In this document: piece by piece, positions 47,434 to 55,900 of the stretch
Layout of the letters: each line of letters starts with the position of its first letter
Position numbering within the stretch: position 1 is the stretch's first letter
Assembly: GCA_043821585.1 (NCBI GenBank)
Contig: JBDRCQ010000002.1
Span: forward strand, 133,969-197,968
Source of the DNA: an archaeon
GTDB lineage: Archaea > Nanobdellota > Nanobdellia > Pacearchaeales > GW2011-AR1
Length of the DNA stretch: 64,000 nt
Direction: 5' to 3'
The notes under the pieces: model-generated
The model's database searches: none
What the model was told of the DNA's origin: nothing
The model's input: the letters and a program-made list of their open reading frames with translations, nothing else
Program-made: the position numbers and the translations under genes

Positions 47434-50076
47434 TTATATTTCCATCAAGTTTAGGAACTTCTTTTTGTTGTTTATCTTTTTCGCAATGTCAAATATTGCC
47501 AGGAGAGCGAGTGAAAAGGCTATCGCAATGCCCCAGTCAGCTAGGGTGATTGGTACGGTTTCGAAAACTTTGTTAAGTGGCGTGTAAACTATTGCGAGTG
47601 TGGCTATGAGTGAGATTATTGAAGCATAGACTAGATATTTGTTGACGAGTGGTGAGCGGTTTAGTACTCCTTTTCTGAATGATCTAAAGTTGAATGCGGA
47701 GGCGATTTCCAGCGTTATGAGGGATACCAAGGCGGTTGTTCTGGCGTATTCAATGTTTCGATCTAGGATATTGAACGTGAAGAAGAACACCGTTAGGACA
47801 AATAGAGCTAGCAGACTTCCTGTTAAGATTAACAAGATAATGAAGTTTTTGTTTAGGAGTTCTGATTTTTTTCTAGGTGTTGCGTCCATTACATCTGTTG
47901 AGGAGGGGTTGAAGCCAAGGGTGATGGCTGGTAGATTATCCGTGACAAGGTTCATGAAGAGAATTTGTAGGGCGAATAGTAGAGGGATTTGCCAGCCAAG
48001 AAGCGGAGTGAGTAGGACGCCGACAAAGATGATAGTTAGCTCGGCAAAATTGCAGGAAAGTTGATAGGTCACAAATTTTCTTACGTTTCTGAAGATTGTT
48101 CGGCCTTCTTTGATCGCCGAGACTATTGTTGTGAAGTCGTCGTCTTTTAATGTCAGGTCGGCGACTTCTCTTGAGACGTCTGTTCCGTTTTTTCCCATTG
48201 CAACGCCGATGTGTGCTTCTTTGAGTGCAGGTGCGTCGTTGACTCCATCGCCAGTCATTGTAACTATCTCGCCATTTGCTTTCAGAGCTTTGACTATCCT
48301 TAATTTATGTTCCGGTTTTACTCTGGCCAGAATGACAATCGAACCGATTACTTTTGAAAGTTCTTCATCTGTAATACGATCTAGTTCGTGCCCCTCCATT
48401 ACTTTTCCGCGAAGTCCGATTTGGTTTGCTATTGACAATGCAGTTTCTTTGTTGTCGCCTGTGATCATTTTAACTTTGATACCTGCTTTGAGGCAGATTT
48501 TGATAGATTCTTTGACGCCTTCTCGAGGCGGATCTTCCATGCCAACTAAGCCTAGGAAAATTAGGTCTTGTTCAAGTGTTCTCTTTTCAAATACTGAAAC
48601 TTTTTTGTAGGTAATTGCGAGAGTTCTCAATGTTTGAGATGTCATCCTAATGTTTTCTTTTAGGATTTTCTTTTTGTCCTTGGTTGTCAGTTTGAAAACG
48701 CCGTTGTGTCTTTGAATGTATGCGCATTTTTCCAGAATAAACTCAAGAGCGCCCTTTGAGAAGACGAAATTTTCTTTTTCGCGTTTGCAGACAACAGTCA
48801 TTCTTTTTCGTTCTGAACTGAAGGGTATTTCTTCGATTCTTTTTAGTTTTAGGTCCTCTTTGTAAAGGCCTTGTTTAGCAGCCATTATTAATAATGCTGC
48901 TTCTGTTGGCGTTCCGGAGATTTTGAATGTGTTTTCCTCGCCGGCTCTTTCTATTCGAGAGTCATTGCATGATATTGCAGCTCTTAACAACAGGTCCAGA
49001 ACAGGTTCCTTTCCGATTGAAATCTTTTTACCCGAGGAGGTGAAGTCTCCTGACGCTTCGTAACCTGTTCCAGAAATTTCTATTATTTTGTTGTCAGAGA
49101 ATATTCGGTTGACAGTCATTTCTCCTTTTGTGATTGTTCCGGTTTTGTCAGAGCAGATGACGGTTGTTTCGCCGAGCGTTTCGATGGTGGACATTCTGTT
49201 GACGATCGCATTTTCTTTGGCCATCTTTCTGGCGCCGCTGGCCAGGGTTGTTATTAATACAACTGGAAAACCTTCTGGAAAGGCAGAGACTGAAAGAGCA
49301 ATTACCAGGATTAGCGCTTCGATGACAAAGGTTTGCGAGAGCTCGGGGGCTCTCCAGAGCATTAGTAAGCCTGTTAAAATAGAGACTGTGATCGCAAGAG
49401 TGGCCATATATTTAGCAATTTTGTTGATTTTCTTTTGGAGAGGGAGTTCTTTTTCTGCGGTTGAGATCATGTGAGCAATTTTTCCAAATTTTGTGTTCAT
49501 GCCTGTGTGGAGAACATTGGCCAGGCATTTTCCGTTTACCACGAATGAACCCATGAATATGAGGTTTTTGTCAGAATATTTTTTAAGGTTTTTCGCAGTT
49601 TCTTTTTTTATCTCTTTGGATTCTCCGGTGAGGATTGATTCGTTTATGTAAAGCTCTTTTTCTTCCAGGATGATGCAGTCTGCAGGAATCTTCTCGCCGC
49701 TTCTGAGAACTAAGATGTCGCCGGGAACTATCTGGGTGGAAAGAATCTCTTGTTCTTTGTTGTCGCGGATCACTATAGAAACTGGTAGGATAATTTTTTT
49801 CAAGGCTTTGATTGCTTTGTCTGCTCTGTACTCTTGTATGAAACCAAGAGATACAACCATCACGATTACTGCGATTATTGTATACGCGGTGATTGACTTA
49901 CCTACAAAGAAAGAGATAAGCATTGCAGCGAGTAAGAGGTAAATTATGAAGTTGTTTTTTATTTGTCTTGTGAGAATTCTTAGAGGGGTATTTAGTGAGA
50001 CCTCTTGGATCTCGTTTGTGCCGAACCTCTCTAAAATGGCTTCAGCTTCTTCTTTTGTAAGACCTCTTTTTTCCAT
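47434..50076 (-). CDS. P-type cation-transporting ATPase (type II, Ca2+/cation-like)
   Basis: Motifs present are TGES, the phosphorylation site CSDKTGTIT, MITGDN and TGDGVNDAPALKEA. The protein is 880 aa with about 10 TM segments. Confidence 0.95.
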   Translation of the reverse strand: MEKRGLTKEEAEAILERFGTNEIQEVSLNTPLRILTRQIKNNFIIYLLLAAMLISFFVGKSITAYTIIAVIVMVVSLGFIQEYRADKAIKALKKIILPVSIVIRDNKEQEILSTQIVPGDILVLRSGEKIPADCIILEEKELYINESILTGESKEIKKETAKNLKKYSDKNLIFMGSFVVNGKCLANVLHTGMNTKFGKIAHMISTAEKELPLQKKINKIAKYMATLAITVSILTGLLMLWRAPELSQTFVIEALILVIALSVSAFPEGFPVVLITTLASGARKMAKENAIVNRMSTIETLGETTVICSDKTGTITKGEMTVNRIFSDNKIIEISGTGYEASGDFTSSGKKISIGKEPVLDLLLRAAISCNDSRIERAGEENTFKISGTPTEAALLIMAAKQGLYKEDLKLKRIEEIPFSSERKRMTVVCKREKENFVFSKGALEFILEKCAYIQRHNGVFKLTTKDKKKILKENIRMTSQTLRTLAITYKKVSVFEKRTLEQDLIFLGLVGMEDPPREGVKESIKICLKAGIKVKMITGDNKETALSIANQIGLRGKVMEGHELDRITDEELSKVIGSIVILARVKPEHKLRIVKALKANGEIVTMTGDGVNDAPALKEAHIGVAMGKNGTDVSREVADLTLKDDDFTTIVSAIKEGRTIFRNVRKFVTYQLSCNFAELTIIFVGVLLTPLLGWQIPLLFALQILFMNLVTDNLPAITLGFNPSSTDVMDATPRKKSELLNKNFIILLILTGSLLALFVLTVFFFTFNILDRNIEYARTTALVSLITLEIASAFNFRSFRKGVLNRSPLVNKYLVYASIISLIATLAIVYTPLNKVFETVPITLADWGIAIAFSLALLAIFDIAKKINNKKKFLNLMEI

Positions 50077-50153
50077 AAGCTAAATCTCTTTAGTTGGTGG
50101 GAAACAACCTTTTTATACTCTTTTCTCGTTGTTAAACCATAAAAGAGGTAAAA

Positions 50154-50990
50154 ATGAAAATACTTGCGTTAGATATCGGTGGGACGAATGTTCGTTCGGC
50201 GATTGTTAAGGGAATGAAGCTTTGTGATTATCGCAAGATTAAGACGCCGGCGAAACAGAAGGAAGAGGTTAAGTGCCTTTTTGATGTTGTCTCGGGTTAT
50301 GGTAAGGTTGATGCGATTTGTATATCGACTGCAGGTTTTTTGAGGGATGGGAAGATTGTTCTTTCTTTGAATAACGATATGGATGGCGTGCCCTTGCCGG
50401 GTGTTTTGAAGAAGAAATTTAGGACTAATGTATATGTGGGGAATGATGCGAATTGTGCGGCATTGGCGGAGTTTTATTATGGTGCTGGTCGGGGGCGGCG
50501 TAATTTTATTTTGATTACTCTTGGTTCGGGAATTGGTGGGGGTGCGATTTTGAATGGGAAATTGTATTGTGGTGGCGGTGGAGCGATTGAGCCCGGGAGT
50601 ATGAGGATTGATGGCGAGAAATATATCTGGGAGGAGTTGGCTTCGGGGAATGCTTCGATTAGGGTTGCTCGAGAAATGGGTTTTAAGGGGATCACGAGTC
50701 TGGAGTTAGAGCATAAGGCAGATGCAGGGAATGCGAAGGCTAAGAATGTTTATGACATTGTTGGAAAGAATATTGGTCTTGGGCTTGCTAATTTAGCTTA
50801 TATCTTTGATCCGGAGTTGTTGGTTGTTGGAGGGGGTTTTAGTAGAGTAAAGTACATTTACCCTGAAATGAATAAGACGTTCAAGAGATTGTACAAGTTG
50901 AATCCGAAGCCGAAGATTGTTAAGGCTAAATTTGGGGATGATGCTGGTTTGATTGGTGCTTCTTTACTTGTGAAGGAAAAAAATGGATAG
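50154..50990 (+). CDS. ROK-family sugar kinase (glucokinase-like)
   Basis: Motifs present are LALDIGGTNVR, GNDANCAALAE and GSGIGGG. Confidence 0.8.
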   Translation: MKILALDIGGTNVRSAIVKGMKLCDYRKIKTPAKQKEEVKCLFDVVSGYGKVDAICISTAGFLRDGKIVLSLNNDMDGVPLPGVLKKKFRTNVYVGNDANCAALAEFYYGAGRGRRNFILITLGSGIGGGAILNGKLYCGGGGAIEPGSMRIDGEKYIWEELASGNASIRVAREMGFKGITSLELEHKADAGNAKAKNVYDIVGKNIGLGLANLAYIFDPELLVVGGGFSRVKYIYPEMNKTFKRLYKLNPKPKIVKAKFGDDAGLIGASLLVKEKNG

Positions 50991-51768
50991 TGCGATGGCA
51001 GTTGCAGGTCAGCAGGAACAAGCTCCTCCGGTGCAGCAGCCGAGGTCTAAGATCTGGATTTATGTAATGGTTGCGGTTTTTATTGTGATAGTTGTGATTG
51101 CTAGTGTTGCAGTGGTTTATCTTACCAATAAGCAAAGCAGTAAGGAGGAAGTTGTTGAAGCCCATATGACTTGGTTTAGGTGTTTGAGTTTGTGTCCTCT
51201 TATTCCGTATGAATCTCTCGTGAATGATGAGGTGGTTCGTACAGTTGACCCCAGTTGCATGTATGGATGTAATGATGAAGGGCATAGGGTCGAGTGGGAA
51301 TATGGCTATGTTTTATATCCCGGACCTATCGAGGAGGCTATTTCCCAGGGATATCTGGACTGTTTTAATCTGGCTAGGGCAGATTTAGATTTTGATCATG
51401 AAACTTGTTATAGTGAGTTGTTTGATAGGTATAAAGAGTATTACGATTTCAGCGATTATGAGCTGCCACATTATCAGGTTTATAGTTTGACGCTTGACGG
51501 TTTTACTTGTTATGAGGATCGTCTTGAGGTTAGTGTCACGTATAGCGAGGGAGATGATGTGGGGGGCAATGTTACAGTGGTGCTTGAGGGAGGAGATTAT
51601 ACTACTAAGGCTGTTCAGTTTGATGCCATTAATGTGGGGGATAGCGAGACTTATGTGGTTGTTTATGATGAACAGGGATTAGACTTTGATTATCTTAATG
51701 GCACTTTTTCTACGTCATTACTTATTCAAGGAAAAGGCACTACCTTGCAAGAGTGGTCTCAATGTTAA
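50983..51768 (+). CDS. membrane-anchored extracytoplasmic protein, unknown function
   Basis: The N-terminal TM helix is IWIYVMVAVFIVIVVIASVAVVYL. The C-terminal domain is acidic and Cys-containing. The start overlaps the ROK stop. Confidence 0.5.
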   Translation: MDSAMAVAGQQEQAPPVQQPRSKIWIYVMVAVFIVIVVIASVAVVYLTNKQSSKEEVVEAHMTWFRCLSLCPLIPYESLVNDEVVRTVDPSCMYGCNDEGHRVEWEYGYVLYPGPIEEAISQGYLDCFNLARADLDFDHETCYSELFDRYKEYYDFSDYELPHYQVYSLTLDGFTCYEDRLEVSVTYSEGDDVGGNVTVVLEGGDYTTKAVQFDAINVGDSETYVVVYDEQGLDFDYLNGTFSTSLLIQGKGTTLQEWSQC

Positions 51769-51802
51769 TCTAGCAAGGACCTAAATATTTTTATAGGGTT
51801 TT

Positions 51803-52357
51803 TTGGCTGGGCTTGTCATGAGAATTAGAGATAAATTGCCTTCTGCTTTCGTATTGTGGCATAAGGGGCTTGTAATGGTTGGCGTTAGGGGAATGTTTTC
51901 TGGGGAGCTTGGTGAGATTGGGGCATTGTTTGGCCAGGAGGGTTTTGGAGTTTCTCAGGTCGTTAAACAGCCTGAAAGGGATTTCTTGGCGGTTTTTGCT
52001 ACAGAGCAACCAATTGTTGATTTTACTGTTGATTTGTATGGGTCTGGGGCTTCGGCGATTGTTGCTTGGAGTTTGGATGTTGATAGAGTTGTGCCATTGA
52101 TTGAGCGAGTTGTGGATAGTCCTTCTTTTTCGTTGGATTCTGTTTTAGATCCTGGATTTGCTCGAACGCTTCAGAGCGAGTTTGTGATGGAATGCGCTGC
52201 TTATGAAATGTGTGAGGTGGCTTCTCGACAGAGTGGAATTGGGTTTGACGATTTATTTGCTACGATACGTTATGGCAATTTTTTGTATCAGTATAGGGGA
52301 GTTCCGGAGGAAGGGGCGTTGCAGTTGGCGGGCGAGAAGTATGGTTGTTCTTTGTGA
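51803..52357 (+). CDS. hypothetical protein (likely start ATG 51818)
   Basis: 184-aa ORF in a more GC-rich block. It shows faint resemblance to nucleotide-sugar dehydrogenase segments only. Confidence 0.4.
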   Translation: MAGLVMRIRDKLPSAFVLWHKGLVMVGVRGMFSGELGEIGALFGQEGFGVSQVVKQPERDFLAVFATEQPIVDFTVDLYGSGASAIVAWSLDVDRVVPLIERVVDSPSFSLDSVLDPGFARTLQSEFVMECAAYEMCEVASRQSGIGFDDLFATIRYGNFLYQYRGVPEEGALQLAGEKYGCSL

Positions 52358-52509
52358 GGGGCTACCACAACAATCTTTTTATAGCGTTTATTGGTGGGAT
52401 TTTTATGAAGGTTATATTAGAAACGCCAGGAAGGGGAGAAACTGTTAGTTTGGATCAGCCTGGATTGTATAAGATTGGTGCGCCTTAGGGTTTTAGCGGC
52501 GAGTTAGAC

Positions 52510-52857
52510 GTGAGGGTGGATGTTATGAAGATTGATATGCATCCCTCTTCGCCATATGAGTCTCATAGGGGAAGGCTTTTTGAGGGAAAGGTCGGAGGTC
52601 TTGCTGATGATGAGAAATTTAAACCCTTATCCGAGAAGCCTGTGTTGTTGCATTTGACTAAGGATTCTGCAGTGTTTTATGATTCTGCTGGGGAGCAAGG
52701 AGTTCGGCCTGATTGGAGTGGGTGGGGTCAAGAGAAAGCAGATGATATTGTTGATGTTTCGTCTCGTGTGGGGTGTGGTCATAGCGAGCTTTATATGAGG
52801 GGCGTGAGGTTTCATCTTTTTGTTGAGAAAGATGAAAAATCTTGTGGTGCTGTTTGA
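52510..52857 (+). CDS. hypothetical protein; same frame as an upstream 27-codon ATG ORF (52405-52485) separated only by TAG 52486-52488
   Basis: Track ORF with a GTG start. ATG 52525 has the upstream GAGGGTGG. The upstream in-frame piece is MKVILETPGRGETVSLDQPGLYKIGAP. Confidence 0.45.
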   Translation: MRVDVMKIDMHPSSPYESHRGRLFEGKVGGLADDEKFKPLSEKPVLLHLTKDSAVFYDSAGEQGVRPDWSGWGQEKADDIVDVSSRVGCGHSELYMRGVRFHLFVEKDEKSCGAV

Positions 52858-52861
52858 TTAA

Positions 52862-52930
52862 TTTAAAGAAAATAGCTTTAATTATAGGTGAGGCCGAAGG
52901 CCGAACGCGCTCGGCATGATTTGGATTTTT
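52862..52930 (+). ncRNA. conserved GC-rich hairpin element, copy 2
   Basis: TTAAAGAAAATAGCTTTAAT…GAGGCCGAAGGCCGAACGCGCTCGGCATGATTTGGATTTTT aligns with 24809-24880. The hairpin is GCCGA-ACGCGC-TCGGC. Confidence 0.35.
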
Positions 52931-52998
52931 GCAGGGGTTCGGGCAAGGAAATTATGGGAGATCAAAGAGTTTTTATAGCTCAACACTGGTAATTTTTC

Positions 52999-53202
52999 AT
53001 GGAAAGAGCGTATTGTCAAAATTGTGGAAGGGAAACAAATCACGTTGTGGTGGATGATCCCGGAACAACGGGCGGCAGGAAAGATTAGTACTCTTGTTAT
53101 GAGTGTGGCGAAGATAGAAAGAGATTATTCGAAGAGGGGGTTCGAATTGATTCTCAGGAAAGAACTTCTGTGCTTCCTGAAAACTCTTCAATGGCCGTGT
53201 AA
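52999..53202 (+). CDS. zinc-ribbon small protein interrupted by an in-frame TAG (53086-53088)
   Basis: The sequence is MERAYCQNCGRETNHVVVDDPGTTGGRKD-TAG-YSCYECGEDRKRLFEEG…MAV-TAA. The two CxxC pairs lie on either side of the TAG, and the second half has no start codon of its own. Confidence 0.45.
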
Positions 53203-53256
53203 GGTGCGATTGTGACTGAATAATTTTTTAAACCCTTGATCTTCTCTTTGTGGGAG

Positions 53257-54381
53257 ATGCATTACCACATAATTTTGACGGAGCTGTGCAATTCGAAGTG
53301 CAGGTATTGTTATGGGAAGAGCATGTGCGAGGAGAATGATCTGAACAAGAGGTTTAAGTTTGACTTTGATGCGCCGCAGGTTTCTGAGGTTACTACGGAA
53401 AAGATTAGGGAGTTTCTATTGAAGGATAAGGGGCCGACGTTGGTGTTTTACGGCGGGGAGCCGTTGTTGCAGATGGATCGTATTAAGGAATTGATCGATT
53501 CTTTGTCTGACGTGCCCAATATTCAGTTTAGGGTGCAGACGAATGGGAAACTGCTTGATGGGTTTGATATAAACTATTTGAAAAAAATTGGGAAGATTCT
53601 TGTTTCGATTGATGGGACGAAGGAGCGGACCGATTTTAATAAAGGGAAGGGGACTTATGACAGGGTTGTGGGGAATTTGCGCCGGGTTCGGGAATTAGGT
53701 TACGATGGGGAGATTGTTGCACGGATGTGTGTTTCTGAGTTTGGGGATGTTTATGAGCAAGTGATGCATCTTAAGAGTTTAATTGATGAAGGACTTTTTG
53801 ATTCGATACATTGGCAGTTGGATGTTGGGTTTTATTCTTGTGATTATGATTTTGATAGGGTTAGCAAGTTCGTTGAGGAGTATAATGCCTCGATAGATAA
53901 GCTGGTTGAGTGGTGGGTTGGGGAGATGGAAAAAGGCAAGGTTTGGAAGTTGTATCCGTTTGTGGGGCTGGTTGAGAATTTGCTTTCTGGGAAGAAGACG
54001 AAGTTGATGTGTGGAGCAGGGCATTCGGGATATACGATAACGACTGATGGCAATTTGGTGGCGTGTCCGATAATGGGTTGTATGCCTGATTTTTATTGCG
54101 GGACACTTGATTCTGCTCCGAGTGGGTTGCGGGAGATTGGACCAGCTTCGCGGTGCGAGGGGTGTGCTTATTTGAAGGATTGCGGAGGGCGGTGTTTGTA
54201 TGTGAATAGCGTGAATTTGTGGCCGGCGGAGGGGTTGGATATGGTTTGTTCTTCGGTTAAACATTTGATTGATTTATTGAAAGGGAAGTTGGAGGAGATC
54301 AAGGGTTTTATTGACTCGGGCAAGGTTAGCGAGAAGGACTTTGGGTATGAAAAGTATTTTGGGCCGGAGATTATTCCTTAG
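53257..54381 (+). CDS. radical SAM enzyme with C-terminal SPASM-type auxiliary cluster domain (peptide/protein-modifying maturase-like)
   Basis: CNSKCRYC (CxxxCxxC) lies at about 53287-53310. The C-terminal Cys motifs are CGAG…ACP and CEGCAYLKDCGGRC. ATG 53257 lies within the track ORF. Confidence 0.8.
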   Translation: MHYHIILTELCNSKCRYCYGKSMCEENDLNKRFKFDFDAPQVSEVTTEKIREFLLKDKGPTLVFYGGEPLLQMDRIKELIDSLSDVPNIQFRVQTNGKLLDGFDINYLKKIGKILVSIDGTKERTDFNKGKGTYDRVVGNLRRVRELGYDGEIVARMCVSEFGDVYEQVMHLKSLIDEGLFDSIHWQLDVGFYSCDYDFDRVSKFVEEYNASIDKLVEWWVGEMEKGKVWKLYPFVGLVENLLSGKKTKLMCGAGHSGYTITTDGNLVACPIMGCMPDFYCGTLDSAPSGLREIGPASRCEGCAYLKDCGGRCLYVNSVNLWPAEGLDMVCSSVKHLIDLLKGKLEEIKGFIDSGKVSEKDFGYEKYFGPEIIP

Positions 54382-55900
54382 CCTCGTTAAATGCTTTGAC
54401 GTTTTTCTTGAGTTTTTTAAACTCTCTAACAAATTCTTCTTCTGTTGGGGCGTTTCTTCCATCTCTTGAAATAACTCTGTTGTATATATCATGAATGTTT
54501 GAGCAGTAAATTAACGAAGTTCCGGCGTACCTGCTGTTTGCGATTATTTCTTTTCTCTTTTCCGTGTAGGCTCTTGCGATTAGGTACCTTACTTTACGCG
54601 CGAATTCTTTGGCTCGCTTTAGACCATCTCTTTCTTCTATCTTGCCCAATATTGCTTTGTACTTTTCGTATTCTTTGTGTGTCCTGAAATCTCCATTTGA
54701 TCCCTTTTTACTGCAGTATGGTTTTGGAGGGTGGTATTCTATAAACTCTCCATTAATCATAAAGTCAATACCTCCACAATTTAATCCACCATCTCTTATT
54801 TGCCAGGTCTTTCCTTGTTCTAATCCCCATTCTGGGATGTATCGCTCGAATAATGTTGCTATTGCTGCCTCTTCTTGGGAATGGAATTTGTTTCCTAGCC
54901 AGCATATCCTTTGGCTTTCTCTTGCAAGTTTGTTTCCACTTCTTTTTCCAACTGCAGACATCTTTTTTCTATGCGTTGGATCTTGCCACAACTTTCTTGC
55001 CCAATCACTTGTCTGCTTTTTTCTCCTTTCTCGGTATTCCTGATTGGCCCAAAGTCGTTTACTTTTTTCACTCATTAGTTTAACCATTTTATCCCGGTTT
55101 TTCCCTTTTGCCCACATTTCTCTTGATCTTTTGGACAGTATCTTTGCATGTTTTTCTCTAGCACCTTCGTCTTGCCATCTTTTTCTTACGCCTTGATCTT
55201 GTACGGCAGTGTATTCGGGGTCTTGCCATAATCTTTTGGATAGTTGGCTTTGGAGAATTTTTATGCGATACGTCCTTTCGTCCTCCGGCAGATTTTTTGT
55301 TAGAACTCTCCTAACCTTTAGGGCAGCAGTGTTTAATTCATCTGCTAGTTCTTTGGTTGTTCTTAATTGGTTAATTTTGCCAGTTTGATGGGCCCTGATT
55401 TCATTCAATGCGGCTGCAACAATCTCTTCTTTGATCTCTCGGGCTAGAAGATCCTTTGTTGTTTGGATCTTTGATTTTTTTGGTTGATTAGGTCTTACCT
55501 TTGTTTGACCAAGCACTGTTTTTCGCCCACCTTTTTTTGCTTTTTCCTTACATCTTAAAGTTCGGAGTGCTTCAGTTCTTTCTCTGGCGGAGATTCCCAC
55601 TTTTTTCATTAATTTATTTACTGCCGATCTGGATATGCCGAAATCCTTTGCTAAATCTCTTTGACTTCTCCCTTGAGAATGATACTGGAGCTGGATGTAA
55701 TTCGTCAAGCCTCCGAATTCTTCCTTGTAACCTTGTTTTTCTTCCAGGTCTAACCAAAAAGTATACCAAGAAGGCCGGGATGATTCTAGCTGTAGTTGTT
55801 CAAGAGGTTTTATTTGTGGCGTGTTTTGATCTTTTGAGACTATTTCCACTAAGTTTTCAGTTTCTTTATCTGTTCTTATTAGCGGGGGAATCTTTTCCAT
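54371..55900 (-). CDS. HTH- and repeat-containing protein with C-terminal PD-(D/E)xK/DUF559-like segment (possible selfish-element nuclease)
   Basis: The HTH is RSQRDLAKDFGISRSAVNKLMKKVG. There are about 4 repeats of the S(K/E)(R/K)..(R/K)(L/M)W(Q/A).(P/Q)EY(R/T) type. GIDFMINGEFIEYHP resembles the DUF559 core. Confidence 0.4.
   Translation of the reverse strand: MEKIPPLIRTDKETENLVEIVSKDQNTPQIKPLEQLQLESSRPSWYTFWLDLEEKQGYKEEFGGLTNYIQLQYHSQGRSQRDLAKDFGISRSAVNKLMKKVGISARERTEALRTLRCKEKAKKGGRKTVLGQTKVRPNQPKKSKIQTTKDLLAREIKEEIVAAALNEIRAHQTGKINQLRTTKELADELNTAALKVRRVLTKNLPEDERTYRIKILQSQLSKRLWQDPEYTAVQDQGVRKRWQDEGAREKHAKILSKRSREMWAKGKNRDKMVKLMSEKSKRLWANQEYRERRKKQTSDWARKLWQDPTHRKKMSAVGKRSGNKLARESQRICWLGNKFHSQEEAAIATLFERYIPEWGLEQGKTWQIRDGGLNCGGIDFMINGEFIEYHPPKPYCSKKGSNGDFRTHKEYEKYKAILGKIEERDGLKRAKEFARKVRYLIARAYTEKRKEIIANSRYAGTSLIYCSNIHDIYNRVISRDGRNAPTEEEFVREFKKLKKNVKAFNEAKE

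Follow-up and report, generated by a model that had tools for sequence, protein, structure and literature searches.

We find that a small zinc-ribbon gene of an uncultured archaeon is cut by an in-frame TAG, and we attribute this stop, with a probability of roughly 0.85, to a non-programmed one-base nonsense substitution, which may be genuine (a recent mutation or a variant) or an error of the consensus. Judged by its homologues, the frame at 52999–53202 is one gene, encoding a zinc-ribbon protein of 67 aa and one domain in which two CxxCG knuckles occur. Its break does not differ in kind from an ordinary broken gene or base error. Unless a contig is named, positions refer to the window, that is, the whole 64,000-nt stretch of DNA analyzed (C2:133969–197968), which belongs to a 1.22-Mb genome assembly of 22 contigs (41% GC, 86.6% complete).

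An interrupted zinc-ribbon gene

The frame that opens at ATG 52999–53001 comprises 67 codons with a single TAG at 53086–53088 and ends at TAA 53200–53202, which confirms the coordinates reported in a first-pass annotation made from the sequence alone. It starts with MERAYCQNCGRETNHVVVDDPGTTGGRKD and, beyond the TAG, continues in the same frame as YSCYECGEDRKRLFEEGVRIDSQERTSVLPENSSMAV. The annotation had also placed the CxxC pairs of a zinc ribbon on opposite sides of the stop, and we likewise find one CxxCG knuckle before it (CQNCG) and one after (CYECG). Its remark that the downstream half lacks a start codon holds to the extent that start-type codons recur in frame only as a GTG near codon 57 and an ATG at codon 65, both so late that the second half has no usable start of its own. 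The features of the region are as follows.

52376..52383, + strand: TATA box TTTTTATA of the second case, starting 29 nt 5′ of ATG 52405 (promoter score 7.4)
52405..52488, + strand: leaderless 27-codon ORF ending in TAG, coding score 0.39 per codon
52525..52860, + strand: 110-aa ORFan in the same frame as the 27-codon ORF; the public gene call starts at 52525
52970..52977, + strand: zinc-ribbon promoter, TATA box TTTTTATA beginning 29 nt 5′ of ATG 52999; leaderless
52999..53085, + strand: first half of the zinc ribbon, 29 codons, with knuckle C6, C9 and strands beta1–beta2
53086..53088, + strand: in-frame TAG, aligned with a conserved Tyr/Phe after an invariant Asp
53089..53202, + strand: second half of the zinc ribbon, with beta3, knuckle C33, C36, the conserved GEDRKRLF motif, a tail and TAA
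53257..54381, + strand: TIGR04084 (AF0577-type) radical-SAM/SPASM gene with its own T/A-rich box upstream; stop codon TAG

Coding scores derived from codon usage were 0.345 per codon for the first half of the zinc ribbon and 0.205 for the second, and codon usage was coding-like on either side of both this TAG and the one at 52486. The 37 codons 3′ of the zinc-ribbon TAG are intact and keep the motifs of the family.

We then turned to homologues of the protein. A profile (HMMER) scan of 1.84 billion proteins or representatives returned only eight matches, five of them small proteins of 57–117 aa, and one homologue, a 78-aa uninterrupted ORF from a Woesearchaeota MAG (P0003), was present among the 60 relatives searched. 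In a scan of genome contigs, the copy in genome G029 was the sole match, while a word-index protein search and a metagenome scan for relatives of the zinc ribbon returned none; an IMG/VR scan gave one weak, motif-level match to a 135-aa phage protein, which is uninformative. With about six members among 1.8 billion proteins, the family thus defined, found in Woesearchaeota-type archaea, is very rare.

The five full-length homologues (P0003, P0005, P0006, P0008 and P0011; 57–117 aa) bear directly on the stop. Both CxxCG motifs are invariant across the family alignment, and the position of the TAG, right after an invariant Asp, is occupied by Tyr or Phe in 5/5 homologues (motif D[YF][YF]xC) and by a stop in 0/5. 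The annotation had asked which sense codon aligns with the TAG; the homologues have TAC or TTT there, so that the TAG is one base off a Tyr codon. The continuity of the frame across the stop is far beyond chance. A genuine 29-aa protein was ruled out, since the homologues are full length and none is of about 29 aa.

An AlphaFold model built with the family alignment (pLDDT about 80 in the core, mean 68) shows a zinc ribbon of three strands with two knuckles, the third strand beginning at residue 30, the position of the TAG. The 67-aa product is accordingly predicted to adopt a zinc-ribbon fold, with the knuckle cysteines as predicted zinc ligands. Foldseek matches to the model were all zinc ribbons, none of them significant (every E >0.6).

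Leaderless promoters at both interrupted frames

Across the whole genome, the motif TTT[AT]TA lies exactly 29 nt before the ATG in 179 ORFs of at least 60 aa, with 2–48 at other spacings, and this fixed TATA-to-ATG distance is the signature of leaderless transcripts. The organism thus initiates many genes without a leader, from a TATA box exactly 29 nt from the ATG, a rule that can aid in calling the true starts of small genes. An A-rich, BRE-like stretch at −36 to −32 accompanies the arrangement.

ATG 52999 and ATG 52405 both carry TTTTTATA at −29. With a position weight matrix (PWM) built from long genes, on which real promoters have a median of 6.7 and the majority of short-ORF matches fall below 0, the two starts scored 6.5 and 7.4, respectively. 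Because of the 29-nt spacing, PWM scores around the median and coding-like codon usage, both ATGs are real leaderless translation starts.

In their surroundings, + strand GC skew is very strong, ranging from +0.35 to +0.53 across the five + strand genes (window 50000–54400), and drops to about zero at the start of a minus-strand 509-aa HTH gene. Three successive genes (51803–53202), namely a 184-aa ORF, the 150-codon frame of the second case and the zinc ribbon, separate the radical-SAM gene from the ROK kinase region. None of the three has a counterpart in the same-genus genomes, and the patch looks like a strain-specific accessory segment.

The second interrupted frame

About 500 nt upstream of the zinc-ribbon gene, ATG 52405 opens 27 codons that end at TAG 52486–52488, and the frame then stays open to TGA 52858–52860; the second case described in the first-pass annotation, with a downstream ORF in the same frame, is therefore present as described. 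The 27 codons may thus encode the N-terminus of a 150-codon gene, or they may form a short upstream ORF in its own right. Homologues of the protein were found neither in the 60 relatives nor among 5.8 billion proteins, and a single-sequence AlphaFold model was useless (pLDDT 41).

The annotation had allowed that this case might be a chance coincidence of frames, at odds of about one in three. Because ATG 52405 has a canonical leaderless promoter, we regard the case as more than a frame coincidence, yet a short upstream ORF followed by a gene led by a Shine–Dalgarno (SD) motif fits equally well. According to the latter reading, to which we assign just under even odds, the leaderless 27-codon ORF would end at TAG 52486 and an independent 110-aa gene would start at 52525, the two sharing a frame by chance. 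It is favored by an SD-like GAGGGTGG at −13 to −6 of ATG 52525, whose GAGG at −13 falls in a window where SD motifs are enriched 4–5 fold genome-wide, by the agreement of the 110-aa product with the public gene call, and by a chance of about 0.24 that the two frames are common and stay open. A hairpin at 52512–52548 (GAGGGUGGAUG...CAUCCCUC; z = −2.2), downstream of the 27-codon ORF, encloses both the SD-like motif and ATG 52525 and may act as an element of translational coupling or masking. Against two cistrons, the 12-codon stretch that links the TAG to ATG 52525 is coding-like (0.58 per codon, a score to which the SD itself adds), and the zinc-ribbon gene 500 nt away, of like layout, is proven to be a single gene. 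One interrupted 150-codon gene, which would make this a second hit of like kind, and two cistrons are hence near even.

Interrupted genes elsewhere in the assembly

The annotation had also raised the question of other in-frame TAGs in the genome. We scanned the genome for stops flanked on both sides by coding-like sequence and ran a tblastn census of interruptions against 383 kb of same-genus DNA, a first, crude frameshift census having proved too noisy. Coding-flanked stops amounted to 22/1537 sites for TAG, 45/3371 for TAA and 24/2551 for TGA, that is, without enrichment by stop type. Over the roughly 110 kb in which synteny is conserved, the tblastn census yielded a single solid stop and a single solid frameshift. 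Two surface-protein genes, on contigs C8 and C1, proved to carry a TAG at a position of Gln and Glu, respectively. The interrupted genes are listed below.

C9:62449-64329, − strand: single-copy aCPSF1/FttA gene (TIGR03675, 811 bits), stop near C9:64137
C8:6270-7094, − strand: surface-protein gene, TAG where two orthologues have Gln CAA
C1:4282-4899, − strand: gene of a surface protein with a C-terminal anchor, TAG where the closest orthologue has Glu GAG
C7:48480-48482: TAG in the gene of a Cys-rich giant protein, between 654 and 3424 open codons
C9:42431-43158, − strand: frameshift-split gene, continuous in three same-genus genomes (G015, G004 and G006)

The stop in aCPSF1/FttA is a TAA that follows, in frame, the first KH domain. 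It is missing from 25 of 25 relatives searched, those of the same genus having Glu (GAA/GAG) at its position. This TAA probably reflects an error of the consensus and would be remarkable if real. It is difficult to see how a cell could live with a stop in its sole aCPSF1 gene, so at least some stops of the assembly are probably consensus errors or minority variants. In the case of the giant protein on C7, relatives match only the repeat domain before the TAG. Separately, in-frame TGA and TAG codons also occur in paralogous genes for surface proteins from other MAGs of the genus.

TAG accounts for three of the four verified interruptions, compared with 35% expected from codon usage, a difference that is not significant (p = 0.13). 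When two unverified cases are added, the share becomes 5/6 interrupted genes (p = 0.02), which is suggestive only and leaves small room for a TAG-specific effect. The residues aligned with the verified stops differ (Y/F, Q, E and E), which is the pattern expected of random one-base hits and not one that single-residue recoding would give.

Alternative explanations of the zinc-ribbon stop

The gene directly downstream invites the reading that the small ORFs are RiPP-type substrate peptides of a radical-SAM/SPASM enzyme, with the stop defining a 29-aa precursor, a link at which the first-pass annotation had hinted. The ORFs do lie directly 5′ of the enzyme gene and on the same strand. The enzyme matches TIGR04084 with 279.5 bits (cut-off 225), contains a CNSKCRYC (CxxxCxxC) motif and a Cys-rich SPASM region, and has peptide maturases such as PapB as its next-best matches. 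The comparative evidence does not sustain the link. The full-length zinc-ribbon homologues, at 57–117 aa, are not of precursor size. On four contigs and in G029, their neighbors include genes for small membrane proteins and for PIN-domain proteins, among others, and in no case a radical-SAM/SPASM gene. TIGR04084 genes, in turn, have no conserved upstream partner, the upstream genes being unrelated in nine relatives, and here each gene has a separate TATA box. We therefore consider a precursor–enzyme pair very unlikely. Exact-sequence look-ups of the radical-SAM protein and of the 110-aa ORF returned no record. The TIGR04084 gene is split in two same-genus MAGs: in G009 (L029/L033), where a different 287-aa gene precedes it, it is spread over two contigs, and in G019 (L031/L032) two matched stretches, separated by an insert, share a single open frame.

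Decoding of the TAG, either by reassignment or by leaky termination, was weighed against the translation machinery of the genome. Reassignment to pyrrolysine or another residue could draw on the presence of in-frame TAGs in otherwise intact genes, but searches for PylS and tRNA-CUA, among the checks that the first-pass annotation had proposed, came back empty. In the 86.6%-complete genome, the best match to PylS (TIGR02367) reached 21.9 bits against a cut-off of 178 and is an ordinary class II synthetase. None of the 38 ordinary tRNAs is a tRNA-CUA (ARAGORN with and without introns; Infernal RF00005); a relaxed-threshold ARAGORN run, with about 2900 noise matches, was dropped in favor of Infernal. 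Nor is TAG depleted: of the 420 ORFs with at least 300 codons, 105 (about 25%) terminate in it, a count on which genome-wide reassignment was rejected, and it stands at the natural C-termini of the adjacent radical-SAM and ROK genes. The residues aligned with the stops (Y/F, Q, E) never mark a conserved Lys/Pyl site, and one of the interrupted genes has TAA instead. We give reassignment almost no credence.

A programmed or habitual leakiness of termination, in which UAG and perhaps UAA would be read by near-cognate tRNAs or an undetected suppressor, is improbable. Several observations speak for it. The in-frame TAA in the single-copy, normally essential aCPSF1 would be hard to live with if real, TAG makes up five of the six candidate interruptions, and both cases in the window combine intact downstream halves with strong leaderless promoters. 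If termination were leaky in this way, the zinc ribbon, its 150-aa neighbor, the two surface proteins and aCPSF1 would, improbable as this is, all be made full length. Against it stand the lack of a suppressor tRNA in the assembly, an aRF1 that is canonical in its TASNIKS and YxCxxxF motifs, and the use of TAG or TAA at the end of about 75% of the long ORFs. None of the stops is conserved in any relative, and neither a downstream structure (the 90 nt 3′ of the zinc-ribbon TAG fold like shuffled sequences, z = 0.11) nor a common sequence context or motif around the stops of the interrupted genes was detected. In archaea, moreover, readthrough has been demonstrated only for Sec and Pyl (PMC8211752). 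That at least four to six genes, the only aCPSF1/FttA among them, have real premature UAG or UAA codons, survived through leaky termination by near-cognate readthrough or through an unassembled suppressor, seems to us similarly improbable. As the genome is 86.6% complete, the unassembled remainder could encode a suppressor tRNA. If leaky termination were true, it would be the first archaeal stop-codon readthrough outside Sec and Pyl, and reads proving the stops real, together with full-length products in proteomics, would make this an important archaeal readthrough case.

Origin of the stop

As to the options listed in the first-pass annotation, full-length homologues with Tyr or Phe at the TAG support one gene cut by the stop. 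Recoding is not supported, as PylS and tRNA-CUA are lacking in the assembled 87% of the genome, and so are depletion of TAG, conservation of the stop and a downstream structure. In the reading we prefer, a nonsense substitution, codon 30 of the zinc ribbon would have changed from a Tyr codon (TAY) to TAG by a single base. The TAG would not be decoded and, if the base is real, the product would be no more than a fragment of 29 aa that has half of the zinc ligands, and the gene would be dead.

The change could be real, in the form of a recent mutation or of a variant that segregates within the population, or it could be a wrong base in the metagenome-assembled consensus. We infer a roughly even split between these two origins. 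The intact second half is in keeping with an error or with a hit of very recent date, though readthrough would account for it too. The surface-protein and zinc-ribbon stops could equally be recent, real pseudogenizations. As a counterpoint to a nonsense substitution, two neighboring leaderless genes both carry a TAG at codon 28–30.

The zinc-ribbon stop itself is one more point-broken gene or wrong base in the draft genome of an uncultured archaeon. The several one-base nonsense codons, one of them in an essential single-copy gene, call for caution with gene breaks in this assembly. The analysis also delimits a family of small zinc-ribbon proteins that is very rare.

Comparison with known systems

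Pyrrolysine decoding in Methanosarcinales and other Pyl archaea (PMC8211752, PMC9630628) likewise involves an in-frame UAG inside an otherwise intact gene. Unlike in those organisms, PylS and tRNA-CUA are absent from the assembled genome here, TAG is not depleted, the position is one of Tyr/Phe, and there is no methylamine methyltransferase context. TIGR04084 is a known family to which the match here is the neighboring gene, and its relatives show no conserved partner peptide. A further likeness is to ordinary nonsense pseudogenes and MAG consensus errors. These show the same single-base change from a sense codon that is kept in all relatives, likewise without a recoding signal, and other genes are hit alike, at different residues.

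The protein itself resembles the archaeal one-domain C(P)XCG zinc-finger micro-proteins (PMC6562870, PMC10716476, PMC11241148, PMC2253796). Haloferax volcanii HVO_0758, HVO_2753 and about 40 others, as well as Halobacterium Brz, are likewise smaller than about 80 aa and carry two CxxCG knuckles about 25 residues apart. The zinc ribbon described here differs from the haloarchaeal proteins in that it has no detectable sequence homology to them and in that its copy is interrupted by a stop. What the two have in common is a single zinc-ribbon-like domain, predicted in the present case, encoded by a stand-alone gene, with an unknown or regulatory role.
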